DNA from: Folioceros fuciformis
Lineage: Eukaryota
Direction of reading: 5' to 3'
Assembly (NCBI GenBank): GCA_049999805.1
Contig: JBNGIO010006237.1
Location: 42,852-106,851 of the forward strand
DNA length: 64,000 nucleotides
Part shown: piece by piece, positions 1 to 62,300 of the stretch
Position numbering within the stretch: the stretch's first letter is position 1
How the letters are laid out: each line of letters opens with the position of its first letter
Made by a program: the position numbers and the translations under genes
Notes under the pieces: model-generated
The model's input: the letters and a program-made list of their open reading frames with translations, nothing else
Database searches by the model: none
What the model was told of the DNA's origin: nothing

Positions 1-1084
1 TTCAAGTTCCACTCATTTATGCTTTCTCAAGGCTACAAGCGTAGCGATGAGGATCATTGCCTCTATACGAAGCAAGCCAAGGATGGAAGCTTGTTCATTT
101 TGGTCCTCTATGTGGATGATATGCTAATTGCTGGGACTAACAGTGATGAGATTTTAGCGTTGAAGTCAAAGTTGAATGGTCGCTTTGACATGACAAACTT
201 GGGAGAGGCAAGCCATATTCTTAGCATGCGTATTCGTCGAGACAGACAGAAGCATTTGCTTTACTTGTCTCGGATTGAATACAATAACAAAGGTGCTTCA
301 ACGTTTCAATATGGAGAAGGGGAAGGTATTAAGTACTCCGTTGCCTCCATATGTGAAACTTTCGAGCAAAGATTGCCCAAGCTCTGCGGAGGACAAAGCT
401 CAAATGGAGAAGGTTCCATACTCATCAGCTGTGGGGAGTTTGATGTATGCAATGATTGCTACGCGTCCTGACATTAGGGTTTAGGGTTTTGCATTTGCAG
501 TGGGAGTGATTAGCAGGTTTATGTCAAACCCTGGCATGAAGCATTGGGAGGCAATGAAAGGAGTTATGAGGTACTTGAATGGTACAAAAGCTTTGTGCAT
601 ATGTTTTGGTGGTGAAGATGCATCTGTCGTGGGATATACGGATGCTGATTATGCAGGTGGTATTGACAAAAGGAGGTCCACATCAGGTTATGTCTTCATG
701 TGCACTAGAGGGGCAGTCTCATGGCGATCGCGTTTGCAATCGTGCATAACGCTATCTACCATAGAGGCTAAGTATGTTGCAGCGACTGAGGTATGCAAGG
801 AAGCCATGTGGCTTGCTCGTCTAGTGGGAGATTTGGGGATCAAGGTTGAGTTGCCAGTGTTGCATTGTGATAGCCAGAGTGTTATCCAATTGGCGAAGAA
901 TCCAGTGTTTCATGCAAAGACCAAACATGTGGAAGTGAAGTATCACTTCATTCGAGAGGTGTTGGAAGACAAGAGGGTACACCTTGTCAAAGTTCACACC
1001 AGTTAGAACCCTGCAGATGTTCTTACCAAGGGGCTCTCTTCGGAGCAATTCGCACAAGCTCGGACACTCATGGGCATGAGGTAG
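1..1084 (+). mobile_element. Ty1/copia LTR retrotransposon pol 3' part (RT + RNase H), degenerate; runs off the window start
   Basis: LYVDDML RT motif (ORF 19..471), YSSAVGSLMYAM..TRPDI, GYTDADYAG..DKRRSTSGY, CDSQS, HAKTKHVEVKYHFIRE RNase H motifs. Frameshift near 275; stops at 482 and 1004; natural end TAG 1082-1084. Confidence 0.95.
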
Positions 1085-9729: not shown

Positions 9730-11551
9730 CTATTCTACCGGGACCAGCTCCCGGGCCGGTACGCGGAGAGAGTCGACGTTGGTCCTGCCATCCAGCTTTC
9801 TACCGAAATAGAGCGCCACGTAGTCCGAGAAGAGCACGCTCCTGTACCCGGCGGGGCCTGCGCTATCCACGGGTGTCACCAGCGCGGTCAGCTCCGGCTG
9901 GAAGAAGGTGGCGAGCGACACGCGAGACCCCGCCTTGCACACCACAGCTCGGTGCTCCACGCTCTTGTACTTGCCATTGCTCGCCACCTGAAGATGAAGA
10001 GCAGCAGCAGCACCAGGCAGCAGCACCAGCCGCGGCGAGGTGGACGTGAGACAAGTGCTTCACCGTTCGTGTCCATGTGCCTGCAGCTGCAGCGGCAGAG
10101 CAGGATGAGGTGACAGAGGAACCTAACATCAACGGACAATCACCTACCTCCAACATGTCCCCGACGTTGAGCACCAGCGCCCCGGGCACAGGCTGCACCG
10201 CCAGCCACACGCCGTGGTGGCGAATCTCCAGCCCCGTCACGCCCGGGCTCTGCGCCAGCACAGTCAGGTACCCCCCGTCCNNNNNNNNNNNNNNNNNNNN
10301 NNNNNNNNNNNNNNNNNNNNNNNNNNNNNNNNNNNNNNNNNNNNNNNNNNNNNNNNNNNNNNNNNNNNNNNNNNNNNNNNTCAGGTACCCCCCGTCCGAG
10401 TGCGGGCTCAGCCCTAGCACCGACTCCGCGCGCGGGCACGCCGGGTAGAAGTTGATGCGCAAAGACGCCATGTGCTCTTGTCCGAACGCGTCCTGTAAGC
10501 AGGAGCCTGGTAGACCTAGGCTGAGCGACACCATTTCCAGCACCTGCCTCGCCAAATGCTGGATCCCGCGGCCATACTCCTCCATGACTTGCCTGACATG
10601 CACAAACACCGCACCACGAACAAGAGAAAAATTGTATCCCTATTCTCCTGCTCCTTCAATTCTATCCTCCTGCTCCTTCAATTCTATCCTCCTGCTCCTT
10701 CAATTCTATCCTCCTGCTCCTTCAATTCTATCCTCCAATCCGAGCTGCACTCACCTGTAGGACGCCGGCTTGCGAGGCCAGTGCATCTCCACCTTCTTCA
10801 TGGACTCCGGCATTAGGTTATGTCCCAACACATCCACCCAGTCCCGTGGAGCCCCCTCGTGCTCGAACACCCTGCCATACCCCTGGTACTCCCCGGGCCT
10901 GATGGCCACCTCCTGCTTCACGTCGAACGGCTGCAGGAAGAACTCCTCCGCCACCTTCAATGCCGCCTCCACACTCGACTCGGGCATGCCATGATTCACC
11001 ACCTGCTCCACCACGCCTCACCATTGAGACCGCATTCGGGGCCATGCCAACCCTACGTTAAACCACCACCACCACACCACCACTANNNNNNNNNNNNNNN
11101 NNNNNNNNNNNNNNNNNNNNNNNNNNNNNNNNNNNNNNNNNNNNNNNNNNNNNNNNNNNNNNNNNNNNNNNNNNNNNNNNNNNNNCGTTAAACCACCACC
11201 ACCACACCACCACTACACACGCACCTGGAAGAACCCCCATTCCTCGCACGCCCTGGCCACTTCGCTCCGCACCCTCTCCCTGTCCTCTCCCGATGTCCAG
11301 CCGCTCAGATCTATCACCGGCACGGATGCATCCTGCGACCCCGCCGTCCGTGCCTTCTCCAGCTTTGCTGTGCGAATGAACTGGCTCGGCACTTCCCCGA
11401 TCTCCGACATGGTCTGCACCATTTTCTCCTTCTGCGCCGCCGAGGCATGGAATTCGTGCGCTTCGAATCCGTATGTGGATTTGGAACTGCCATCGCCACC
11501 CGAGCTCCGAACTGCCGTCTGATTGAATCCCATCCTGGCAGTATCCTCCAT
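9730..11551 (-). CDS. 2-oxoglutarate/Fe(II)-dependent dioxygenase (DOXC class), 4 exons
   Basis: VPVIDLS, ACEEWGFFQVVNHG, LRINFYPACP, HSD iron motif, NVGDMLEV.SNGKYKSVEHRAV and RVS 2OG motif. Exons approx. 11225-11551, 10755-11003, 10147-10593, 9730-9988. Confidence 0.93.
10281..10380. other. 100-N assembly gap, probably spurious (further 100-N gaps at 11086-11185 and 37382-37481)
   Basis: Identical TCAGGTACCCCCCGTCC on both sides; collapsing it restores HSDGGYLTVL. Confidence 0.9.
10645..10738. repeat. 22-bp intronic minisatellite (TCCTGCTCCTTCAATTCTATCC x~4)
   Basis: Direct tandem copies in intron 2 of the dioxygenase. Confidence 0.9.
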
Positions 11552-12169
11552 TGCAAGGCGAGGCAGGTCTTCATCTTTATCAATCTCCAAATTTCTCTGC
11601 TGTCCCCGGTTCCTGCCAACTGTCTTCTGGTTTCTGCCAAGTGTCTCCCGTCTCATTGGCAAAAACCACTGCCCGATCCCAACACTCTGACAGCGTCTCG
11701 TGGGCCAGCGTCCGCACTGAAGAAAATCCCCGATCCTTTGTCCAATTTTGTTTTTTTCTGTCTACGTGCATTATTGTTTTTACGAGAAAACAATTCCAAT
11801 TATGTCAGCTGAAAGCTGGTTATGAGATTCACCGATGTTTTTGAAATGATCGGATTTTATATTTTAATCTTTTCTAAGGGCCATGAAAAAAAAAACAAAC
11901 ATGTTAGAGGTATTAAGTAATATGAACCGACCAACCATAATATGGAGAGAAAACGAATTTAAGGTTTCAAGTTTCGTTTTTAAGGTTTGAGGGTATGGAA
12001 TACCGGACAGGGACTATATAGTCATGTTTTTTTTTAATATGTATTTTATATATAAATATTCCATGGCATCTCAAGAATATTCCTCTACTATACCTTGCCA
12101 CATTATCCAACCCTATGTACACACTATATACCAAATTTTTTTTAATACCTCAAACCACTTTGTGTCCCG

Positions 12170-13222
12170 TATGGAATACTGATACGGACAGGAGTTCTTT
12201 CATAGATATTTAAGGGCGGCGGTATACGGTGCAAAGATATGGGACATAGGGTTTGTGCTCGTTTCGGTCATAGAGCAGAAAGTAGGTGTCCCGATTGGGG
12301 CACCTACTTTCTTCCCTTCATCACACTCACACTCACTTTTTTTTTGTAAGTTAGTTAGGACACCGATGACGAAGAGGGCACACCCATAACCGATGAGGTC
12401 GATTGCGGCAAGTCACTGGACGGCACGGAGGGGCGAGTTTTGGAGACAGTTTTTGACATCGCTAACGACTGCCCATCCTCCCCAGACCTTGGCAGTGGCA
12501 TCTCGCACTCTCCAGTGGCCTTCGACCCTGAGCTGTGGCCAGGCCCCGTGCAGCGCAGCACATCGCTCTTTCCACCGGTGTTGCTGCTGCACTCGGTGGC
12601 CCAGATGTTCCCACAAGGGAAGTGGCTAGGTCTGATGGGCGCACTCCCCCGGCGCCGCACCGCGATCCTCACACTCGACGTGTCCGCCATGCATGTAAGT
12701 AGCCAACGGAGGGAACAAGAAGAGGCGCTTCTCACAACGTGGTAGTCAACCTTCCTGGCCGTGGAGGAGTTGTGCAGCATCATGCTAGATGCAATGAAGG
12801 GGAAGAGCAAGGCAGGGACAAGCCACAGCGGTGGCCGAACCGCAGCAAACACTGCACTCTTCTTTGAGATCCTTGGTAGCTTGCTAGAACGTGCTGCAAT
12901 AACGAACGAAGGGGATGCGGACACCGGAGCTGATGCCCTCACCAAACTCCAATACACCAAGCTCAGAAACTTCACACACTTTATCTCATTGGACAGAGTG
13001 TGTTAAGTTCTATAATTCTTTAAAGACTGTGTCCCTTTCGGGACTGAAAGTGGTTAGAGATATTTAAAACAATTTGGTATATGGTATGTACGTAGGGTTG
13101 GATAATGTGGCAAGGTATAGTATAGGAATATTCTTGAGACGCCATAGAATATTCACGTATAAAATATGTATTCCAAAAAACAAACATGACTCTGTAGTCC
13201 TTGGCCGCATCGGTATTCCATA
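12170..13222 (+). mobile_element. Non-autonomous TIR DNA transposon copy E1, nested inside E2
   Basis: Termini TATGGAATAC / GTATTCCATA; TSD GTCCCG (12164-12169) / GTCCTG (13223-13228). Removing E1 restores the family right-end motif CCACTTT..GTCCCGAAAGGGACAC of E2. Confidence 0.85.
12359..13006 (+). pseudogene. Cargo of E1: ~215-codon reading frame with one internal stop, unknown product
   Basis: ORFs 12440..12745 and 12761..13006 are in the same frame, separated by a single TAG; GC-rich between AT-rich element ends. Confidence 0.5.
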
Positions 13223-13299
13223 GTCCTGAAAGGGACACAACAATTTTCTTAAGTTTCTGGCATAGCATCTTGGAATGGGGCGGCCTATTGCGAGCCGGA

Positions 13300-13640
13300 G
13301 CGATGGGGGCAGGGCGGAAGTGGTGGGCTTAGAGCTGGTGGCGTTGATCGACCATGTGGCGCGAGTGGGCATGCCAATTCTAGAGGCGGTGCTCGAGGAG
13401 GATGGGGGCAGCCTGCGCATGAGTCGGGAGGAGTTGGAGCTCATCATGGAGGGTGTGAAGGGCCAGGGAGAGTAGACGATGCGCATGCTTGCGGGTGGGA
13501 GCGTAGCCAACACGATCAGGGGCTGGCGGGGCTCGGGGTGCGCTGTGGGTTGGTGGGCGCCAGAGGGGACGATGCTTGCGGGGATATGTTCGCGGCCGCC
13601 ATGACCGTGTGTAAGGTCGGGCTGAAGAATCTAGGAGGGT
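13300..13640 (+). pseudogene. Captured fragment of a plant pfkB-family carbohydrate kinase gene
   Basis: VALIDHVARV...GGSLRMSREELELI...MLAGGSVANTIRG / LGVRCGLVGARGDDACGDMFAAAM, the pfkB signature 1 region. Stop at 13473-13475 and a 1-nt frameshift near 13520. Confidence 0.8.
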
Positions 13641-13823
13641 GCCACTCCCCTGCTCACTGCTCACTTGGCCTACACCTTTCGGTCATAGGGAACAAAGTAG
13701 GTGTCACGATCTTTGTGCCCTATGACTGAAAGGGGCACAAACTCTATGTCCCTTATCTTTGCACCGTATACCGCCGCCCTTAAATATCTATGAAAGAACC
13801 CTTGTTCGTATTGATATTCCATA

Positions 13824-13947
13824 TGAGGGTAGGGCTGTGATACGTTTTGTTTTTAGGGTTTGAGAGAAGGGCTGTGACACGTTTTGTTTTTAGGGTTTGA
13901 GAGAAGGGCTGCGACAAGTTTCATTTTTAGGGTTTGAGGGTAGGGCT
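13824..13947. repeat. 37-bp minisatellite containing TTTTAGGGTTT (telomere/telobox-like)
   Basis: GGGCTGTGACACGTTTTGTTTTTAGGGTTTGAGAGAA x~3; a related unit lies left of E2 at ~11960-11993. Confidence 0.8.
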
Positions 13948-14144
13948 TCCTAGATCGTTCCACAATGGGCCACAATATTGACTGTGTTAAAGTCTTGTAC
14001 TAAAGAAATAAGGCTTGTGACATAGAACTTTAGAAGACATGTAAAAACGGTAGATGCATAGGCATATTTTTGTATAATACATAATCGAGAAAAAGATAAT
14101 GGACGTGGAGGTTGTCTCTACCGTATTCCATAGATATGAATCTT

Positions 14145-14922
14145 TATGGAATACCGATGCAGACAGGGGTTCTTTCATAGAAATATTAGGGTGGCGGTAT
14201 GCAGTGCAAAGATGAAGGACATAACCTTTGTGCTCGCTTCGGCCATAGGGCACAAAGTAGGTGTCCCGATCAGGACACCACTTTGTGGGGCGAGCCCTGC
14301 AATAGTAGCTGGCCAGCCGTTCCACTTGCGGAGCCCGACTGCTGCATCCAGCTCGGGCCCGGCATGCTCATCGCCGCAGATCCGATTCCGCACTTGCCGC
14401 TCACCGTCCATCCCGCATCTAGCTTGGGTCCGGCATGCCCGGTGCCGCGGATTCGATTCCGCACCCGCCATTCACTGTCCATCCCATACCACATCCATGG
14501 GACGAAGGCGGACCACATCCATAGGACAAAGGCACACCCACCATCAGAATGCTGGGGTGCCGAGGCGAGCTGCGCTGCTCGGGATGATTCTTTAAAGACC
14601 GTGTCCCTTTCGAGGTGAGCTGCGCTGCTCGAGACGATTCTTTAAAGACCGTGTCCCTTTCGAGGTGAGCTGCGCTGCTCGGGCCGATTCTTTAAAGACC
14701 GTGTCCCTGTCGAGGTGAGCTGCGCTGCTCGGGACGATTCTTTAAAGACCGTGTCCCTGTCGAGGTGAGCTGTGCTACTTGGGACGATTATTTAGCCAAT
14801 TAGATGCCACAAAATATTGCGCTGCTCAGGACGATTATTTAGCCTAATAAAGGAATATTCCTTAGATGCCACAAAATATTCATATATAAAATACGTATTC
14901 CAAAAAAAAAACATATTCGATA
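14145..14922 (+). mobile_element. Non-autonomous TIR DNA transposon copy E3 of the same family
   Basis: Left terminus TATGGAATAC (14145), right terminus ATATTCGATA (14922); TSD AATCTT at 14139-14144 and 14923-14928. Left ~140 bp and right ~70 bp are homologous to the E1 ends. Confidence 0.8.
14561..14790. repeat. 50-bp tandem repeat (~4.5 copies) inside E3
   Basis: CGAGGTGAGCTGCGCTGCTCGGGACGATTCTTTAAAGACCGTGTCCCTTT recurs at 14561, 14611, 14661, 14711 and partially at 14761. Confidence 0.92.
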
Positions 14923-15606
14923 AATCTTTGCTTTATAGATAGGAATTTATTTTATCCAATTTTATTTTTTTTATGAAGTTAAGTATTAAGAAATATAACT
15001 CTCCTTTGTTGCTATCACAGCATATTCTATCCATTTTATCCAATTTTATTCCTTTTTAATAAAGTTAAGTATTAAGATATTTAGCTCTCCTCTGCCTCAA
15101 TCCAAGAATATTAGCCAAACATATGCCTATACAGCCAGCATGTACGAACCCATTCGGCATTTTGGAGAAATTTTCCTAATTTCAACATGATCTATTACAA
15201 ATTTACAGAAATATATTATTTCGCAAAATATCAAGGTTGTTAACAGAAGGTGAACCTGCACCCGCTTCTAACACCAAACTCTAGAACATCTGCAAGTTAT
15301 TTGATAAGTTCCGAAAGTTATCTTGATGAGTTCTTTTAATTCAAGCTCTGATAAATTTTATGTCCGTCTCTGAAGAGAGATTCCTATGAACCAAAATATC
15401 TAAGCACTTGTGGACGAGTTACGTGATGAATATCCCGACCAGGTTGGAAGCTAGTCAATACCTACAGTAGGTGTACAAAGTTGAGGGACCACACGGCCGA
15501 TGACTCAGAGAGCCCATTGCTTCTCCGATCATCTCTGCCTCTCCGGTGGCAAGTGGATACCGATTTCGAAGTAGCCCGCATCTCCTTCAGCATTCATCGT
15601 TGCGCT

Positions 15607-23375: not shown

Positions 23376-25598
23376 CTAAGTGGAGAGATTGTCGTGGAGT
23401 AGACAATGAAAATGATGCATTGCTTGTTCCACTCTTGGCGCGTATCGTCCTTCATCGTACGCTGGTGATGCAAGCCCAGTTTGCACGTCCTCGCACAATC
23501 TGATATCTTCCCTCTGTTGCACGAACGAAGATGAAATCCAGCATCTATCACAATCAACACGCTGTGAAATTGTAGAAGCAGTTACCTGAATTTTTTCACT
23601 CTCTTCGATGCTTCTCTCAATGAAGGCGTGGTCCTGCTGTGCAACAGAATTCACAACAAAAGTTGGATTCGGACGTTCAAGAACTCCAAACACGTTTCGT
23701 AAAAATGACTGACCTTCGTACGAGAGTCCAAAAAGAAGTCGAATATAACCCGACATTGGCTGGGTGATAACGGTAGCACGAGATTTGTGTCCATCCAAGG
23801 ACCATACCTGACATACCAGATACGAGGTGAGAACAGGTATCGTTGAGCTTTGGGATGCTCAAGTCTTCACATGCGATACATTGAAAGTGGCGAAGACCTG
23901 TTTATCATGAAGTTGGGGTAGACAAATGCATAGGTAGCCAGACTCCCAAGCCTATTGGCATCGTCAGAAGATTGAGAAGCTCGGCACGTCTGTATGCTCA
24001 CTCTATCATGCAGCTGATTGAGACGGGCAGCAAGTACGTCATAAAAACTTGATGCAGTGATTCAAGAGATGGAAGGTAGTGAAACTTCCAAGCTCGTACC
24101 TTAGTTGTATAACTCTTAAGATCCAGACCAGCAGCCAGGCCTTTGTGAGCGTAGGGAACATGATACCCACCATCTAAGTAGTTGTCACAGTAAACCTGTC
24201 CCACCTCCCAAACAAACGTTCCTCAGAGTGATAAAGAGGAAGTATGCACTGAGCGGATGGATATAAGCCCTTGAAAGAATCACAAAACCTACAAACGTGT
24301 TGTGCAACCTTCCAGTTGCAGTTCAGCGTGTACTCTCGCCTTGCCACATGACATAAGGATGCATCAATCCCTGCATCTGAGAGCTCTTGCGATGCAGGGC
24401 CAAGCCATTTGGAATCTATATTTGCTGTTCCCACTTCTTCAGCCTCTACTTCCATCCCCTCCCTGTGCAAGCTGATGAGCACGAAAGGACCCCATGTAGC
24501 CACTCCTATAGGTAGTAACCCGTACTCCTGTAGAATGAGACCCAGCATCAGCCACAAGTATATTGCTTCAACGCATGTCGAACGAGAAAGCCAAGCAGCA
24601 CGACTTTACTGCAAGCACTGTACTACTTGAGGTCCTCTTTGTGGAAAACATACACGTGCAGAGAAGTTTCGCATGCCTCCAACCCGAGTGGCTTTTTGGA
24701 GTCTGCCATCCAAGCCATACGTCCAGCCCTGTTTCCACAATCGGGTGGCAAACCTTTCCTACTCAGATCCTCCGTCAACAGCAGACCTCGAAAGTGGCAA
24801 AGGGCAGCAATACACACATGATACGGGCAGACAAATGCATTGGCACAGCCAGAGCCACTGGCGATAGCTGCTGCATGATGCCGACAGACATTATGAAAGG
24901 CCTGCAAGCAGCCGGCGTGGTCCCTGCAAACCACATACTTGATCTTGCCTACGCTGCAGACGAATCCACGAGGCTAAATCTTAGAACCCATCTGCAGATC
25001 TACGTCCTCCTCTTCAAGGGAGACGCATCACCTACCTGCCAGTGAAGAAGCTGCCCGGCTCCTTGACTTGTTCTGAATGACCTGCTTCATCCAAAATTAC
25101 GCTGTTTTCAACGCACGAATGCCACCACACGCTGGCTTGATATCACATTCTCCACAAATCGCAAAATATTACCCACACACTGCCAGCCCCGGCAAAACAC
25201 ACGCTCCATCTCTACGGCAGCAAATGATTCGCTCGTGTACCAGGAACTAGGAGGCGTGCATGCCTCTTCCACAGACAGGGACCTGTCGAATCTCATCACC
25301 TGGAACAGGAAGTCTTGTTCCTCTGTCCTCTTTATCCGTGACGGAGAACTGAAATCGCAGCTTACTCCTGCACATCAAATAGGTCCCATCCTCCCCGTTA
25401 TCATCCTGCTAGACGAATCCTGAAGCTCACAAATTGGGCAGACAAGGATATCAAACCGCTGCCGTGTGCAGGGACCGCTTTTGAAGCAGACGCACGGAGC
25501 AAATTCAGGCTCTGTTTCCTGCAGCCCAGTCTCTGCGCAAGGAGACTGGCGAACTTGCCACCTTCCTTCCTACCCAGTAAGGCCCCCGAGCTCGCCAT
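23376..25598 (-). CDS. CMO: Choline monooxygenase-like Rieske oxygenase
   Basis: EACTPPSSWYT, AFHNVCRHHA...FVCPYH Rieske motif, CNWKVYCDNYLDGGYHVPYAH, EDIRLCEDVQTGLASPAYDEGRYAPRVEQAMHHFH. Confidence 0.92.
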
Positions 25599-37069: not shown

Positions 37070-37662
37070 GAACCACATGTATTCAAAAGCGCTTCATGTA
37101 CTTCAAAGGAACATTTTTTGCACATGATTGTAATTCAAAGGATCACATAAAAGTGTTGAAGCATCACATTCAAAAGCACATCATAATTGTACTTGGAAGG
37201 ATCACATAAAAGTGTTGAAGCATCACATTCAAAAGCACATCATAATTGTACTTGGAAGGATCACATGAAAGTGTTGAAGCATCATAATCAAAAGCACTTC
37301 GTGATTGTACTTCGAAGGATCATATGCAAGTGTTGAAGCATCATAATCAAAAGCACGATTGTACTTCTTCGTGTACTTCGANNNNNNNNNNNNNNNNNNN
37401 NNNNNNNNNNNNNNNNNNNNNNNNNNNNNNNNNNNNNNNNNNNNNNNNNNNNNNNNNNNNNNNNNNNNNNNNNNNNNNNNNAAGCATCATAATCAAAAGC
37501 ACGATTGTACTTCTTCGTGTACTTCGAAGAATCATATGAAAGTGTAAAAGTATCACAATCAAAAGGACTTAATGATTGTACTTCAAAGAACTATATTAAA
37601 GTGTTAAATTATTACAATCAAAAGCAATTCATGAATGTACTTCGAAGGATCGCATGAAAGTT
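37070..37662. repeat. 59-bp satellite-like tandem array (AAAGTGTTGAAGCATCA.A.TCAAAAGCAC...TTGTACTTCGAAGGATCACAT), spans an N gap
   Basis: Exact 59-nt period at 37141/37200; degenerate relatives at ~35960-36450 and ~31550-32030. Confidence 0.85.
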
Positions 37663-39066
37663 TGAAAACTAGACAAGAACTATCATGTCAAGCAATGCAT
37701 AAGAGGGTGACCTCGCAAAGTCCTCATCCCACTATACGAAGCTAGAATAGTCGTCATAATGGCTCAACAATGCAACGTAATAAGACAAACGATTTGCAAA
37801 TTATCATATTTTGAACTTCATGGTTTTGCACAACGTTTCTTTAGGTGATTTTTCCACAAGGCCAAAAAAAATGTTTTACATTGGAGACACCTTTAGGAAA
37901 TTATTTCTCACTCAACATTCTTCAGCTACATTAGAACCCTTTGCAAAATATGATGTTATATGTGGAACTTATCTACACAAACTAAGAAGAACAATTGACT
38001 TAAGCCCTATAGGCCCAAAAATCTAGACAAAATATGCACAAACCTTCTTATTATATGCTTTGTTTCTATGCAATGAATCATGTTCAAAGTAGACAAGCTT
38101 TAAGGTGTGACATATTTGTGCCTATTGATTAAGCGACATCTTATTCTATGTCCTCCTTTGATGCGTGACACATAAATACTTAGCTCATTGGAGTTTGATG
38201 GTTAAGTAATCCTCTTATCTCATCGCTATAGATACGTCATCTATACCAGTCATCCCTGTCACTCCTAGCTAGTTAAAGATCGGCAGTTAAATAATCCTTT
38301 GGTCTCATTGTTGTTATGATAGGATACCTTTCTTCCCTCACTACTCCTAGATCTTGGTGGCCTTTGTAATCTAGAGTTATTCAAGGTCCCTCACTATAGG
38401 ATTTCTTTGTCTCACCTAGAAACAAGTCCCTATTGTTCCGAAACCTTATGGATCGTTGGTTAATGATCTTTCATTGACTAACCCTCGAGAGGGACTTTTT
38501 TCTGTAAAGGTTTGAACGGTATGAAGCCCTCCAAAAGATTATCTCAATTGTCTAGCTTATAAAGAGAGCAATTTATGTAAGAATAAGAAGCTCTACTTTA
38601 TGTATTGTCCTTTCTGAAAAAAATATGTTGTGAGGTTAGGCTAAACTCTAGGGCAGCAATGGATCACTCGTATTGTATTTTGTGGTTTTAGGAATTACTC
38701 TATTTACTAACTCAAATTTCTATCCATAATAATTGTAATCCAATATTAAGACTTCATAAAATATTATAGTCATGACTATTTACACTTGTCCCTAATGGAA
38801 ATATTTCATTGAAAGAATTGTGTACATAAACAAGAAAGTGTCATCCTCAACAAATGCGGACGGTGTTCACAGAATGTGGGAGTGCAACGGCTGGCTAATT
38901 TTGTCGTGGGATCCGTCTGATATTTCTTATATGACACCATAAAAGAGAGCCAGCCGTTTGCCATTCTGTCTTCCCGCTCCCTCGTTATTGTCGCCAAGTG
39001 AAATCTGAGAAGCACCGATTTGGCAGCGACAATAGCGCGTACGCACATTGCTCTTGAGAGATCGCT

Positions 39067-47788: not shown

Positions 47789-48432
47789 TCAGAAACCTCT
47801 GCAAAACCCGTCGAACGTTAGACGTAGCCCACAAGCAAAGGCTTGCAACATCACTCCACAGGCATGGAAAGGCATAGAGCAGGACCCAACCTGGATCGCC
47901 TGTTCATGATCCATTTCAGTTTGAATCGGAACTCCCTCTTCGCCATTCTCAGGTCCCGAGCTTTGCGATCCAGCACCCGCTGCTCAGCGGGCTTGATGCA
48001 GTAGCGCTGATCTCGGTAGAGGGACAAGAGGCCCTCTTCCCTCATCTTCCTCTTCCACTTCCGGAGAGCAACTTCGACGTTGTTGTCCTTCACGTCAATC
48101 ATGATATGCCTCAATTGCATACCCTTCAGATGCTGAAGGCCGGCAAGCACCACCCCTTCCCCGCCTTTCCCTCCCAAAGCACGTCCACCATCTGCACAAA
48201 ACCCTAGCCCCGACGTCCCTGCACACCAGCTGCGGGGGTGCCAAGCCGCGTCTCTTGCGCAATGCCACGATCTACATGTAACCAGTTGCTCACTTCCTGC
48301 TACGGATTTCCGCACGGATGGAGCATCTGCAGCCAAAGCCTGCCTCACCAGCGGAACGTGGCCCCACGATGGTTGCGACTTCAAAACCGCCGCCCGGAGA
48401 ACAGAAAGACGGCTTGCACCTGTCCTCCACAT
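47789..48432 (-). CDS. Mitochondrial ribosomal protein bS21-family protein
   Basis: Presequence, then IMIDVKDNNVEVALRKWKRKMREEG...CIKPAEQRVL...FRFKLKWIM. A small terminal intron gives RSRGF-stop at 47789. Confidence 0.85.
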
Positions 48433-48606
48433 CTCGATCTCGCCCTAATAATCCAAGAGCTGGACTGAAGCTTGGGGGAAGGCTGGTTCATCACCCGTGC
48501 TCCCACGGGCGATCGTGAACGCTCGCTGCCAAATAGTGCAACATAACACATGAACTGAAGACAGAGTGCTAAAACCCTTTCCACCAACCACAATGCACCT
48601 GCTTCA

Positions 48607-53211: not shown

Positions 53212-55428
<2,217 letters not shown>

Positions 55429-56440: not shown

Positions 56441-59098
56441 TCAATGGCCTTCTTCGGTGTCAGCATCGCCCCATCTCACCTTGTACTTGGCAGCAAAATA
56501 GTGAGCTCCGGCGGGGCCTCGGCTGCCGTAAGGATAGAGCTCTGGTGGCACCCGCTTGGACTCTAACTCCTTCAACAAGGGAGAGAATATGGCCCAGGCG
56601 GCATCCAGCTCGTCGCTTCTGATGAAAAGCCGCCGCTCCCCTTCGATGGCGTCCAGGAGCAGTCGCTCGTAGGCGTCAGGAATCTCGCCGGAGTAACTGT
56701 CAGCGTAGTGAAGGTTCAGGTTGTTCCGGTCTAGTCTCAGGCCCAGTCCCGGGATCTTGTTGTTGACCTTCAAATAGATGGCCTCATCCGGCTGTACTCG
56801 GATCACCAGCTCGTTGGTTGCCTGGTCTAAGTCACTGCCGAAGTTCCTCTTGTATATGTTTCCAGGAACATGCCTAAACTGCACCCGGATTTCGGCCCTA
56901 GCAGCATAGCGAGATAGCTGATGAGTGCTCGTCATGACGGATAAGAGTTTGCTCAACGGACGCTGGCCAAAGGAGTCTTGTCAAGGCCTTACCGCTTGTT
57001 CTGCAGAGCTTTTCCCGCTTTCATCAAGAAAGGGACTCCATCCCACCTTGCATTGTCGATGAACAGAGCTGCAGCAGCAAACGTGGCCGTCATGCTGTCG
57101 CTGGGAACAGTGACATCGTCTAGGTAGGCAGGATATTTCACTCCGCCCCTTGCATGACCCTTGTACTGCCCGATAACTACGTCTTCCAGATGTAATGGCC
57201 TCATCGACCTCAGTACCTTCACCTGCCGACCATTGCAAGACAGATCAGCGAGATCAGTGGAGTGCATTGGTTAATTTAAGGGACACACCAGCGAATCACA
57301 CACCTTCTCGTTTCTCACGTGCTCTGCATCCAAGCTCACTGGCGGTTCCATGGCAAACAAGGCGAGTATTTGCAGCAAGTGATTTTGCATGATATCTCGA
57401 ATTATGCCGTAATTGTCAAAATAGCTGCAGAGGCATCTAGTCAGCTTTTCATTGTGAGAGATGTTGTGCGTGGGTTTTCAGACCATTACCCTCCACGTCC
57501 CTCAGTGCCGAAATCCTCAGAAAAGATGAATTGGACATTCCGAATGTACTGCCTTGACCACAAAGGTTCAAAAACAAGGTTAGAAAACCGTAAAATTGAG
57601 AGGTTCTCAACCAACTCCTTGCCCAAGTAGTGGTCAATCCTGCAGCATGGAAAAACAGTTCACAACCGCGTCAAGTGGTGAACGTACTAGAACGCTGGAA
57701 CATAGCAGCCAAGCTCATCCCTTTGTTTTACAACCAACTCAACAATAGCCAGAAAAGCATCACCCACCTATATATCTGATCTTCTGCTAGATGCTGCTTG
57801 AGGCCTCTTGTTAGCTCTGCTGAAGATTCAGAGTCACGTCCAAAGGGTTTCTCCACGATAACGCGGGTCCAGCCTTTAGAAGATGAGGTGTATTCACTTG
57901 CACATCCTGCTACATCAACAAAGATATTCGGCGGAATCGACATATAGAATAATCTATTCGCCAACTTGCCGCCCTACACATACAGGACAGCACACTTTGG
58001 AATTGTGTAACAGACAGAAACACTGGAGTCCCACACCTGCTCGAACAGTTAACCTTGAGAAACGGCTATTTCATATCCTCAAACTAGGAGGAAACAGCTT
58101 CAACGGATCAAACAACAGAAACGAGGTCTACCTCATGCTTTTGTAGTTGGCTATTTAGTTGTCTGAAGCTTTTCTCGGAATCATACTGGCCAGACAAATA
58201 AAAGCATCGTGACAAAAAGTGCTTCGTCTTCTCCTCGCAGCTCGCACTGTAAAAAATTGCCACGAACAGAAAAACTGAACAATCAACTCACGAGGTCCAA
58301 TGCGACACTATTCTCGCACAGCGCTCAATCCAGCGCAAACAGATGTGATCCAGGTAGTCACCTATGGCCAACTCTACACTTGAGCGTGCCACCGATGATG
58401 GTTCGAAACTCGGCATCCGTAAGGTTGCTTCTTGCGTATCCATAAATTGTGAAGTGCTGCATACGATTAGGGAGGAAAACACACTGACATCAGTTTGCAC
58501 ATGCAACTAGTGGAGTACGCAGGTCACAGACGACTTGCGACCAGAAGTACAATTCACGAACGATCATGCGTTCTTTTCAAGAATTACAGGATCGGGTATG
58601 CGCAGACCTTTGACAAGCAGCCCTCCGAGTAGAGGGCGAAAAGCGCTGGAAAAATTTTCTTCTTGGCCAAGTCTCCAGAGGCGCCAACTACAGTGATGCT
58701 TAATGTTGACTCGTTGCGTCCGTCCACAGACTTAGCATACAGTAAGCTTGGGTTGGCCGACTTCTCCCGAGTGTAGTCCACTGAGGTGCGCAGCAAGCTC
58801 GGCGTTCCGTCTGCGAAGTTTGCATGTAAAGCGAAAGAATTTCGAACAAGAGATCCAGCAACACGAAAAAGGGAGCGTATATCCTTGAACAGGAGGGAGG
58901 GTAGAGACCCAGAGTCATGGCGGAATCACGCACGCTGGCGACAATTTCTGTAGACTGTGCCACGTTGTGGCCAGAGTCGGGAAAGGAGAGACGAAAAGGG
59001 ACTGTGGAAGAGGTGCTACAGCTGCTAAGGGAAGGCATGGACACACAGGGCTTCAGGCCTGCCCACTGGCGCACCATAGTTGCATGTCTCACTGCCAT
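56441..59098 (-). CDS. G6PD: Glucose-6-phosphate 1-dehydrogenase, plastidic type
   Basis: Transit peptide; [87 protein letters not shown]. Confidence 0.97.
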
Positions 59099-59320: not shown

Positions 59321-62300
59321 TCAATCAGCCTTCAATTTCCCCCTCCGATAACGCCGGAATATTTCCTTCAAAACTGCGACGAGGACGTGCGACAGCACCG
59401 GTACGAAGAACGGCTGCAGGAATAACGACGCCAGTGTGAGGCAACGGAGGAGGAAGCGCAACCGGCATGCAGCGGAAGGCAGACTCACAGTGTAAATTGC
59501 CAAATGATGTTCCAAGGGGAAGTACTGTAAAGACATGAAGGACGGCTGGAAAAATGCGTCCTCTGCTAATGCCCTTGCCCGCCTGACCGCATCTGGTCAG
59601 GACAGCAAGCAACATGACGTTACGGTAAGTATAGGTTTGCTCTACGGGACAGGCAAACGACATGAAACGTGTACAAAATTTACCTCCTGTTGCAAAGTAG
59701 GCGCCCCTGGATGCTTGTGACCTTGCGGCGTTGGCAGCCTCAAGGGACATAGATACCTGTGGATGTTCAATGCGGATATTCAGCTGACTTCAGGTCATCG
59801 TCAGGGTAACCGCTAGCTAAAGTTTCAACAAGACCAGAAGCAGCACCTGTTCAGCAATCTCGTCCTCAATAACCATGTTTGGAAGAGACTGCACCTACAA
59901 GATAAACAAGTGGGGGCATAATTAAAGCATGCAAAATACTTGGTTCACCCTCTGGACATGTGCAAATCGCAGGGGTAGAACACTACCAGCTCGGACAGGG
60001 AGGTCAGTGTTGCTGCCGCAGCTAACTCATCCGCGGCAATACGTCTTCGCAGCAGCACGTCGATCTCCCTGAAGAGTGAAACACCAGTTAGATATGCTTG
60101 CAAAGCAGCAGCTGGCACACTAAGCTATTCTACATGCACGGACTCCATACCAATCAGCAATGCCAGTGGTGACGGCAGGGACATGGTCCAAGCCAGATGT
60201 GTTGTTGAATTCTAGGGATGGCAATCCGAAGAGAGCACGAAGTTGAGCCACAATGATTCCCATCAAGCCTTGCATATCCTGGATACACACAAGGGGCAAG
60301 GTCTGAGTGCCAACTTTCCGGATAGGATATCCTTAGAGGAGAGTGACAAATCACGGTAAATGCCACCTCGACATCAAGACGCCGGGGGGCAGGCTTGCTG
60401 CCTTGTCTCCCTGTTTCACACGTTGGGGGATTCCAGATCGTCACACCCCCCCATCCCTGCCACAGACAGAGCAACGTCAAAGCAAAGGCTGTGACACAGT
60501 GGCAAGTGCAAACACATGCATCGGAGAGGAAGCCATGGGAATCCAGAAAACGACTTTGATCATTCAAGTAGCTAAGCAAGCCGCAAGAGATGGGTGCTTA
60601 CAGGTGAGGTGAATCCATTTATCAACGATTGACCACTTGCATGCTTAATCCGAAGTGGACTTTCGTCCGAGGCAGGTATGTAGCTGCATGAGGCATAAAA
60701 CCACTGAGCGAGTCCTAGGCAACCTGCGAGCGTCATGACGAATACGAAACAAGGCACTGTACAAAGCTTATACTGAGCAGTACATCACAAAATGCAGGAG
60801 CTTCGACCGACCAACAGATGCCGTTGAGGAGTCCAGGGGCCACTCTCTAGAATTCACCTAAACAGTCAATCGTTGTTGTCAGGTGATTTGAACCAAAAAT
60901 ATGATAGCCTGGCAGGTTAGCCACTCACGAAAAAAGGAAGCTTGTCTGGAGTTAACGCGTAAGAACCCAAATTTGTATCCCAAGCTGCCTGGACTCCCTT
61001 GCGGGTATAGTGAAGGACCTGTAGACATGAAATCTGTGTCACTGAGTACTCAAATGTCGGTAAACTCCAGATATCATGTATGGAACAGCGCAAAAGTTCA
61101 GCACCAGGTTCCATGTTCTCGTCTTTGACTGACTGTTCATGCGGTTACCTGACTTTCAATGCTCATCATTCCCACAGGTGACATTGCCTTCACTATTGGC
61201 TTCAGGAATTGCATCTCCAGAGTCTTGAAATCCCTGGCCACTCCATAGTCCAAGGACTTCAGTAAATTTGTCAGATGCAGGCCTCAGATTGATGGTGTGC
61301 CAAACCCAAGCGGCTTATTTGACTTCCTCACCAGTCATAGATCCAGTCCTTCGGCTCTGCATTTAAAAGACTGAACGACAGTACAACTTTGCCATCTGCT
61401 CCAAGTGGCATGCTAACCACTTGGCCATGTTCCTCTACAGCCACATGTGCATTTCTTCTGTGGTCGAAATAGACATGAGCAATCTCGCGAATGAGAGGAA
61501 CGACATCAAAGTCTTTGGCCACAGATATCCAGGCATGACGATGCTTCCCGACGACCGCTGCTGACCTTGGCAGGTTGTTTCCACCAGTATCACTATCTGC
61601 AACCACCCACAGATAGTATTCATTGCACATGACGTCAGACCAAGTGAGAACAGATAGCAATGGCTAAAGATTAGGACTGTACCTTCCACATCAGATCTCA
61701 CTATGATAGAGTACTTCCCACCCTGATCTGGCCCTCCAGGATTGCTCGGGTCAAGCACAGAATATTTCCAAAGCAGTTCATCCAATTCGTGGTCAGTAGC
61801 TGTTCTGAAAGCACGGTCCATGGGCGCACCGGCCAGACCACAAGGCCAGACAACAAAACCCTCATGTTCCCCAGTTCTGCGGCAGCCGAGATGAGAGTCG
61901 ACACTAACTAGTAGCTTGAAGCCAGAGCCACACGTGTCGACAGCAGAATGCAGAGAAGCTAATATGTCCTCCCGGACACTAGCGGCCCATGCCTCCAATT
62001 GTGCAGCTGCTGCAGAACCCCCTTTTACAATGAAGATTACGTGCAAATGGCAAGGAAGAAGAAGCGGTTGAGACGAAACATTCTCCGAGTGTTCCTTAAT
62101 AACGGCGAAAGGAATTGGTGATCGATGGATCTCTGTAGTCCACCACCACACAGGAATTCCTGCGGTTGCAACAACGAGTCCACCACCTTAACACAGATAG
62201 TGTACCAAAAGCATTTGGAGGGAGTTTGAACTGGCAGCTCACCTGAAATGAAAGCAAGAAGAATCGAAATCGTCACCAGTAGACGCTTATGCCCCTGTCG

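Follow-up and report, generated by a model that had tools for sequence, protein, structure and literature searches.

The stretch of DNA analysed here, 64,000 nucleotides in length and referred to below as the window, contains a dense locus in which six transposon termini and a stub at 14123-14132 are crowded within 3 kb. The termini pair up as the ends of three small elements, designated X, Y and Z, each bounded by short target-site duplications; the two kinds of terminal unit that they contain are termed O and I. Element Y extends from 11994 to 13823, which amounts to 771 bp once its nested guest, X, is subtracted, and it encloses a stretch homologous to the 5′ end of a pfkB-type kinase gene. 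The features are listed in Table 1.

Table 1. Features of the locus, in window coordinates
Feature	Position	Strand	Basis or detail
Y left target-site duplication, TGAGGG	11988..11993	.	6/6 with 13824-13829
Y O end, terminus starts TATGGAATAC	11994..12169	+	84% inverted match to 13039-13222
X left target duplication, GTCCCG	12164..12169		within Y's O end
X, 1053 bp, nested in Y's O end in opposite orientation	12170..13222	-	I end 12170-12310 (plus), cargo 12311-13038, O end 13039-13222 (minus)
X right target-site duplication, GTCCTG	13223..13228	.
Inner part of Y's O end and short stretch before the fragment	13229..13271	+	first 11 nt continue O-end sequence
pfkB kinase fragment, probably captured	13272..13632	+	phmmer, tblastn, Pfam of homologues, parent-like contig, composition
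54-nt spacer between the fragment and Y's I end	13633..13686	.	parent-like contig diverges at 13632; I-end homology from 13687
Y I end, terminus at 13823	13687..13823	-	reads TATGGAATAT.. on the minus strand
Y right target-site duplication, TGAGGG	13824..13829	.
37-bp tandem repeat, 3.4 copies, TTTAGGG motif	13824..13947	.	proposed target of the Y insertion
Z left target-site duplication, AATCTT	14139..14144	.	6/6 with 14923-14928
Z, 778 bp	14145..14922	-	I end 14145-14284 (plus), cargo 14285-14844, O end 14845-14922
Second host-derived piece, in Z	14287..14415	.	partly duplicated as 71-bp repeats at 14344-14485
Z right target-site duplication, AATCTT	14923..14928	.

Extent and homology of the pfkB fragment

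The fragment corresponds to the first third of the gene and includes the start codon; it begins 3 nt 5′ of the ATG (13275) and continues for about 120 codons. Frame +3, read from 13266, gives ..MGRPIASRS..VVGLELVALIDHVARV..GGSLRMSREELELI.., then a TAG at 13473-13475, which is the single in-frame stop, and then ..MLAGGSVANTIRG..; frame +2 gives ..GLGVRCGLVGARGDD.. and continues ..GLAGLGVRCGLVGARGDD..MFAAAM..GLKNL. A 1-bp deletion between 13522 and 13523, defined with the parent-like contig described below as the reference, accounts for the frameshift. A first-pass annotation of this DNA had reported the motifs LIDHVARV and AGGSVANTIRG, both of which are found in frame +3 from 13266, and had counted one stop and one frameshift, which are the two lesions just located. 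It had also placed the fragment at 13262-13680; a fragment is indeed there, but the limits have to be redrawn, the homologous stretch being 13272-13632. The composition changes sharply at this stretch, with a GC content of 0.65 in the fragment against 0.32-0.46 in the element ends, and AT-rich repeat units flank it on both sides.

The read-through of the fragment, with the stop written as X, was compared by phmmer with 1.84 billion representative proteins at a threshold of E≤0.001. Thirteen matches were returned, of which 10 are pfkB-like plant or algal proteins; the remaining three are repeat proteins (two RTX-repeat proteins and one other) and were taken as spurious. The best match, P0004, is a protein of 378 aa whose alignment starts from its Met1 (E 2.3e-12). 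The pfkB family PF00294 is detected at E<0.001 in nine of the 10 pfkB-like matches, seven of them above the gathering score, and in all 68 homologues listed by a word-indexed search for longer proteins. Among these 68, liverwort proteins come first, with 52% identity, followed by AT1G19600-like or “slr0537-like” proteins from many land plants. Across the matches to the pfkB fragment and to an aminotransferase exon of the window, the best proteins are from liverwort, moss, clubmoss and Closterium, at 52-84% identity.

When seven full-length homologues were searched against the whole window by tblastn, residues 1-90 of P0004 aligned with 13275-13532 in frame +3 and residues 91-125 with 13529-13633 in frame +2, giving an E value of 2e-19 over residues 1-125. 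All other matches of the seven homologues in the 64 kb had E≥0.8, so that the remaining two thirds of the 378 residues, including the C-terminal part of the kinase domain, are absent from the window; the flanks, which had been named in advance as the place where the rest of the gene might be hiding, do not contain it. Judged by these E values, the similarity of the fragment to pfkB kinases is far beyond chance, and the earlier assignment to the N-terminal part of such a kinase is borne out by phmmer, by tblastn and by the Pfam content of the homologues.

A direct match to the pfkB profile, which had also been anticipated, was obtained for the homologues and not for the fragment itself: neither its separate frames nor its read-through matched any Pfam family at E≤1 or 0.1. 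The part of the protein represented in the fragment reaches no further than the N-terminal extension and the beginning of the domain model, and the frameshift breaks it in two; in P0004 the PF00294 model starts only at residue 64. The family assignment of the fragment is one that rests on its homologues. Among solved structures, a phmmer search with the read-through did not pick up any pfkB kinase; the top match there, 2q0t_A (E 0.0025), is an unrelated decarboxylase subunit and was taken as chance. In relation to the plant pfkB-like family (AT1G19600-like or “sugar kinase slr0537”-like; PF00294), the N-terminal 125 residues align at 44-56% identity with full-length members, and the conserved ..LAGGSVANTIRGL.. 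stretch is also found in the fragment. Unlike those members, however, it represents a third of the protein, carries a stop and a frameshift and lacks the remaining kinase domain, and it is not a working member of the family.

Three related elements and their contents

Comparison of the window with itself resolves the O and I units at the positions and in the orientations given in Table 1. Both units open with the same ~24 letters, TATGGAATAC.., past which the O and I ends differ. Since X, Y and Z each have one O end and one I end, O and I are two unlike subterminal regions of a single family. The I end of Y matches 12170-12317 at 81% and 14145-14257 at 80.5%, in both cases inverted. The O end of Z has an internal deletion near its tip; its match to the O unit (minus strand) covers 14845-14914, and the right terminus is recognised only by eight of nine terminal letters and by the duplication. 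Five of the six termini begin TATGGAATA, the right tip of Z reads TATCGAATA, and TA is the start of all six. An arrangement in which O and I together form one MULE-like inverted repeat of ~320 bp was considered for these ends and dropped, as the order of the right-hand pieces is wrong for it; pairing by the 6-bp duplications accounts for every terminus.

Directly outside the termini, the adjoining 6-mers are identical in Y and in Z, and agree at five of six letters in X, where the mismatch is a CpG-to-TpG change. Twelve pairings of left and right termini were compared; the three that define the elements match at 6/6, 5/6 and 6/6, and the other nine at 3/6 or fewer. Random pairs of 6-mers from the window match completely with a frequency of 0.0004. 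Duplications of 3, 8 or 9 bp, or of TA, were looked for by eye in the 12-nt flanks and none fits all three elements. The TA is inside the element, as it is the 6-mers outside it that match; a TA duplication is not fully separable from this arrangement.

The order of insertion can be read by removing the elements. When the flanks of Y are joined, a unit of the 37-bp tandem repeat is restored (11968-11998 matches 13915-13945). When Y is joined across X, the O-end sequence is recovered as it stands in X's own O end; X thus lies nested within Y, and of the two it inserted later.

Contigs from public sequencing runs were compared with the window at 80% likeness. Runs X1 and X2 are DNA from one sample and contain 70-72% of the sampled words of 11200-15600; run X3, a 2017 run carrying the same organism label, contains 14% of them and is RNA only by guess. 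Contigs of the DNA runs part from the window at 12170, 13222, 13823 and 14145 and run on into differing flanks, with six to seven such contigs at 13823, as is expected if these positions are element tips present at many sites. Up to 7 contigs in X2 and 4 in X1 lie over position 13393, in the pfkB fragment; summed contig depth is not equivalent to copy number. One X2 contig (record 13; 13232-13510, 86% identical) joins 13232-13271 to the pfkB piece, and this contig, along with several diverged ones, suggests that there may be more than one copy; a second full copy with a duplication of its own could not be read from them.

The three elements are 0.8-1.1 kb in length and have no transposase inside them; six ORFs or read-throughs within X, Y and Z match no Pfam family. 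A scan of 55 ORFs of the window found no DNA-transposase family. The sole mobile-element match among these 55 is a Copia-type reverse transcriptase at 1-468, and no autonomous copy, which would define a sense strand for the element, was seen. As the family to which Y belongs has no coding capacity of its own, its transposase would be encoded elsewhere. The inserts are not alike. That of X (728 bp) is without a detectable relative, its read-through (12359-13006, stop as X) matching no protein at E≤0.001 among 2401 candidates. The piece at 14287-14415 in Z is 88% identical, with 15 other letters over 129 nt, to a contig of run X3 (record 19; 1217 nt, depth 261) that continues unlike the window on both sides of the match. 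The family thus carries varied inserts, as Pack-type elements do.

The pfkB fragment is situated between the O and I ends of Y and inside its 6-bp duplication; that it lies wholly between the ends of an element, as the first reading had it, is confirmed by termini and a perfect duplication that enclose it. Y accordingly displays the features that define Pack-TYPE elements, namely TIRs with a target-site duplication, an insert that appears to derive from a host gene existing elsewhere, and no transposase inside. Taken together, the sequence comparisons support a real capture of a piece of host gene by a transposon, which would be an ordinary case of a known process.

Alternatively, the fragment could be the relic of an old local pfkB pseudogene, or of a local duplicate, that came to lie between unrelated truncated transposon ends and was never cargo. 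In such a dense patch of element ends a chance arrangement is conceivable, and the stretches of 43 nt and 54 nt beside the fragment have no assigned origin. A perfect 6-bp duplication, however, brackets exactly one O and one I end round the fragment, a build that X and Z share, and the tandem-repeat unit is restored when the flanks of Y are joined. Nor does the window hold any further pfkB exon in its 64 kb, and the link between 13232-13271 and the pfkB piece recurs in a second, diverged copy (X2 record 13). We consider a local relic very unlikely, and capture is the reading adopted in what follows.

A parent-like locus and the decay of the fragment

Run X3 shows no differences from either of the flanking genes of the window (records 15 and 21) and so is from the same organism. 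One of its contigs (record 17; 2070 nt, depth 160) matches exactly 13272-13632. Over these 361 nt it is 92% identical to the window, with 28 other letters and one gap, and it extends beyond the match by 189 nt upstream and 1519 nt downstream, neither of which matches the window. The C behind 13522 that is missing from the window is present in this contig and restores the reading ..ANTIRGLAGLGV..; after 13632 the contig stays in frame with ..LRVGRGPTGQC, where the homologue P0004 has ..LRVTSGSTGQC... Record 17 is likely to have been transcribed from the parent gene or from a paralogue very close to it; even if X3 were a DNA run, the contig is an intact-looking locus extending past the fragment on both sides. 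Among the X3 contigs none is identical to the window's own pfkB copy, and no RNA data set is listed as containing that stretch, which says nothing either way about its expression.

The contig from the DNA runs that most resembles the parent (X1 record 5) has the same extra C and is collinear over 13272-13625. Its depth of 6 is near that of the unique flanks, and its 390 upstream letters are unlike the window. At some positions, 13445 among them, its letters are not those of X3 record 17, and there may be more than one parent-like locus. The first-pass annotation had proposed host gene capture and had named two outcomes that would tell against it, the discovery of the rest of the gene in the flanks and a failure to find a parent; the flanks proved empty, the search for a parent produced the 2070-nt contig, which extends both ways and shows coding continuity, and the proposal survives both tests.

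A comparison of introns had also been suggested as a means of separating uptake of DNA from uptake of RNA. Since the DNA contig is collinear with the RNA-like one, the captured stretch probably falls within a single exon and the absence of an intron says nothing; the check looks uninformative. The same observation bears on the possibility that the fragment entered through an RNA intermediate, as a retroposed piece of cDNA. An intronless stretch collinear with the RNA-like contig is what such an origin would leave behind, but the parent-like DNA contig is just as collinear over 13272-13625. The piece, moreover, represents the 5′ end of a message, starting 3 nt ahead of the ATG and stopping at codon ~120, with no poly(A) tract and no 3′ end. 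Retroposition is thus an extremely improbable source of the fragment, and uptake at the DNA level remains the preferred reading.

The changes in the fragment were examined against X3 record 17, using the 21 of the 28 base differences that were among those listed, so that the proportions are provisional. In 16 of the 21, a C or G in the parent-like contig has become T or A in the window, and 13 of these 16 are in a CG or CHG context. The 21 differences are distributed over codon positions 1, 2 and 3 as 9, 5 and 7. Provisionally, this pattern of decay is as would be expected for an unconstrained, cytosine-methylated repeat and not for a gene under selection. The drift of the fragment from its parent since capture amounts to about 8%. 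With its frameshift and a stop that was probably gained in the copy, it encodes nothing, and for annotation 13272-13632 should be recorded as a pseudogene piece and not called a kinase gene.

Changes of C>T (128) and G>A (141) are in excess in a further run, X4, which may have been treated with bisulfite. Among the X4-only C>T places listed in 13328-13488, 11 of 11 are CHH, in contigs that are not assignable to one copy; of the plus-strand cytosines in 13320-13490, 14 of 30 are in CG or CHG. The restriction of the listed X4 changes to CHH fits CG and CHG methylation of pfkB-like copies, and is not counted here as evidence.

The carrier family and the proposed history

MULE target duplications are usually ~9-10 bp and those of CACTA elements 3 bp, and the cargo of Pack-MULEs is biased to the GC-rich 5′ parts of genes. 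In the present elements the duplication is of 6 bp in all three (five of six letters in X), where hAT elements would have 8 bp, and adjoining 9-mers match in no pairing, the agreement stopping at 6; the long TIRs of Pack-MULEs are likewise not found. The available excerpts of PMC8903248 give duplications of 8 nt for hAT, TA for Mariner, TTA/TAA for PIF and 5 nt for CACTA, and those of Kojima 2023 (PMC10045372) give 4-10 bp for MuDR. The combination of 6-bp duplications with a TA start at six of six termini is instead that described for IS3EU and GingerRoot. In the same excerpts of Kojima, TA..TA termini are constant in complete IS3EU families, whose duplications are usually of 6 bp, and GingerRoots have 6-bp duplications and mostly TA..TA ends (PMC10045372); in the clubmoss Selaginella lepidophylla, 72 of 77 intact GingerRoots have TA..TA ends and 71 of 77 a 6-bp duplication (Cerbin et al. 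2019, PMC6839031, in excerpt).

Other points of likeness to GingerRoot/IS3EU concern contents and host. As far as the excerpted text of PMC6839031 goes, 22 of 77 GingerRoots carry gene fragments 79-98% identical to their parents, a range that includes the 92% found here; in both cases the inserts are internal host fragments and the elements that carry them are without transposase. Among plants, GingerRoot is confined in that excerpt to bryophytes and lycophytes (Cerbin et al. 2019, PMC6839031), and the host here looks to be a non-seed streptophyte.

The differences are also clear. GingerRoots are given as 3.9-12.9 kb long with TIRs of 100-150 bp (PMC6839031, in excerpt), whereas X, Y and Z are of 0.8-1.1 kb and the two ends of each share only ~24 nt, so that the long TIR of this group is not seen. 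X, Y and Z adjoin expressed genes, while GingerRoots are reported, in the portion of PMC6839031 available, to be far from genes. Finally, the elements here are known without an integrase-like transposase tied to them. Weighing these points, we place the carrier in IS3EU/GingerRoot with a confidence that is only somewhat better than even.

It is possible instead that the capture is real and that the carrier is a Pack-MULE, a hAT or a member of some other classical TIR family of plants. MULE and CACTA supply the best-known Pack-type elements, and others have been described for hAT, PIF and Mariner (PMC8903248 and PMC13317346, both in excerpt). The ~24-nt TIR and the subterminal repeat motifs resemble hAT or CACTA more than GingerRoot. 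The Pack-MULEs of rice, maize and Arabidopsis (Jiang et al. 2004, via excerpts of PMC13317346 and PMC8903248) are, like Y, non-autonomous TIR elements with an internal region taken from host genes; they are mostly non-functional and lie near the 5′ ends of genes. In duplication, TA termini and short TIR, however, the present elements depart from Pack-MULEs, whose TIRs are long. Duplications of 6 bp in all three elements do not agree with the 8 nt of hAT, the TA of Mariner or the TTA/TAA of PIF, even though the range for MuDR does not formally exclude 6 bp, and the TA start of six of six termini is a constant of the complete IS3EU families and of 72 of 77 GingerRoots. A classical TIR carrier is on these grounds rather unlikely, and IS3EU/GingerRoot is the assignment carried forward.

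The locus as a whole is best explained, and with good confidence, as the dead 5′ end of a host pfkB-type gene that entered a small non-autonomous TIR transposon, Y, by uptake of DNA. This account is built on features read directly from the sequences: the homology and extent of the fragment, the contig that resembles its parent, the termini with their duplications, and the nesting of X in Y. Y would have been moved, most likely, by an integrase-like transposase of IS3EU/GingerRoot type. With the fragment already aboard, it would have inserted in the 37-bp tandem repeat upstream of an expressed dioxygenase-like gene; its sister element X would then have inserted in Y's O end, and the third element, Z, would have landed 320 bp away. 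The ~8% drift after capture, mostly C-to-T at CG and CHG sites, would be what methylation leaves in a silenced repeat. The assignment to a superfamily, the sequence of events, the past methylation and the route of uptake are the proposed parts of this history.

Two routes of uptake may be envisaged. The fragment may have been copied in by template switching while a gap was being repaired. Alternatively, two related elements may first have inserted near each other, and an aberrant excision may then have joined their outer ends around the DNA between them, as in the model for Pack-CACTA elements (Catoni et al. 2019, via an excerpt of PMC13317346); Pack-TYPE elements of hAT and PIF are likewise reported to make local insertions within one cluster (PMC8903248, in excerpt). 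Three related elements within 3 kb, one of them nested, are the starting state that such a model needs. On the other hand, the elements described here have neither the termini of CACTA nor its shorter duplications, and no hybrid-forming excision is seen at the locus. The local and nested insertions are raw material for the aberrant-excision route and no proof of it; the clustering only makes the route plausible.

That DNA transposons capture gene fragments has been known for a long time, and Y leaves that picture unchanged. What it offers is a clean, fully bounded example, with termini, duplications, rebuilt empty sites, an order of nesting and a candidate expressed parent. The carrier seemingly belongs to a rarely annotated superfamily, with a 6-bp duplication and TA ends, and standard plant annotation pipelines, designed for MULE, CACTA, hAT, PIF and Mariner elements, would overlook it or assign it to the wrong group. 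More tentatively, these could be the first miniature “Pack” derivatives (0.8-1.1 kb) of IS3EU/GingerRoot in a non-seed plant other than Selaginella, with different host-derived inserts in at least two of the three local copies, and with insertion next to or into one another at the 5′ side of a gene. An integrase-like transposon may in that case be shuffling the 5′ ends of genes at high frequency, and a methylated pfkB copy of this kind could feed small RNAs directed against its expressed parent.

Repeats and cargo in the transposon cluster

The insertion target of element Y, the non-autonomous TIR transposon carrying the pfkB kinase fragment, is a 37-bp tandem repeat (see table). In the cargo of element X, which is nested in Y, the frame tabulated is matched on the minus strand by a further frame of 215 codons that is fully open; neither of these frames has a protein or Pfam relative, and the cargo is itself repeated, being found in DNA contigs at ~85% identity.

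Every unit of the 50-bp repeat within element Z, which lies beside the other two, contains the motif CTTTAAAGACCGTGTCCCT, and this motif is found once more at the O end of element X (13012-13040), one of the two unlike subterminal regions of the family. It may be that its occurrence in the repeat represents an amplified subterminal motif, a putative binding site. A fourth right-hand terminus was also observed as a stub at 14123-14132 (GTATTCCATA), where the terminal homology extends over only ~11 letters; it lies 12 nt ahead of the left tip of element Z, and could be what is left of a truncated element, or else a relic of excision.

Base changes in a public DNA run

When X4, a DNA run from the source-like sample, was compared to positions 11200-15600, a strong excess of C>T (128 places) and G>A (141 places) was seen, as would be expected from a bisulfite-type library. 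Among the places listed, the conversions in pfkB-like copies were at CHH sites throughout.

Neighbouring genes and the rest of the window

The 5' end of a 2-oxoglutarate dioxygenase-like gene has the three-element cluster ~250 bp upstream. The start of this gene lies by an N run (11086-11185), and positions 11222-11560 within it show 0 differences from an RNA-like contig, assembled from a run guessed to be RNA under the same organism label. Further away, the surroundings of a 59-bp tandem array are very AT-rich, with a GC of 0.30 across 36-38 kb. The window is gene-dense, and the five exons listed belong to ordinary host genes.

Features of the window and their positions
Feature	Position	Strand	Details
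Copia-type reverse transcriptase fragment	1-1003	+	At window start; RVT_2, E 5e-13
2-oxoglutarate dioxygenase-like gene, start	11216-11761	-	DIOX_N, E 1.2e-08
37-bp tandem repeat	13824-13947 and 11968-11993		3.4 copies; TTTAGGG motif
Element X cargo frame	12359-13006	+	215 codons, single TAG
50-bp repeat within element Z	14561-14794		4.7 copies
Rieske-type ring-hydroxylase domain	23379-23858	-	Host gene exon
59-bp tandem array	37129-37720		Encloses N run 37382-37481
Ribosomal protein S21	47854-48444	-	Host gene exon
Class-III aminotransferase (alanine-glyoxylate type)	54624-55073	+	Host gene exon
Glucose-6-phosphate dehydrogenase C-terminal domain	56444-56980	-	Host gene exon
PIG-S	61438-62187	-	Host gene exon
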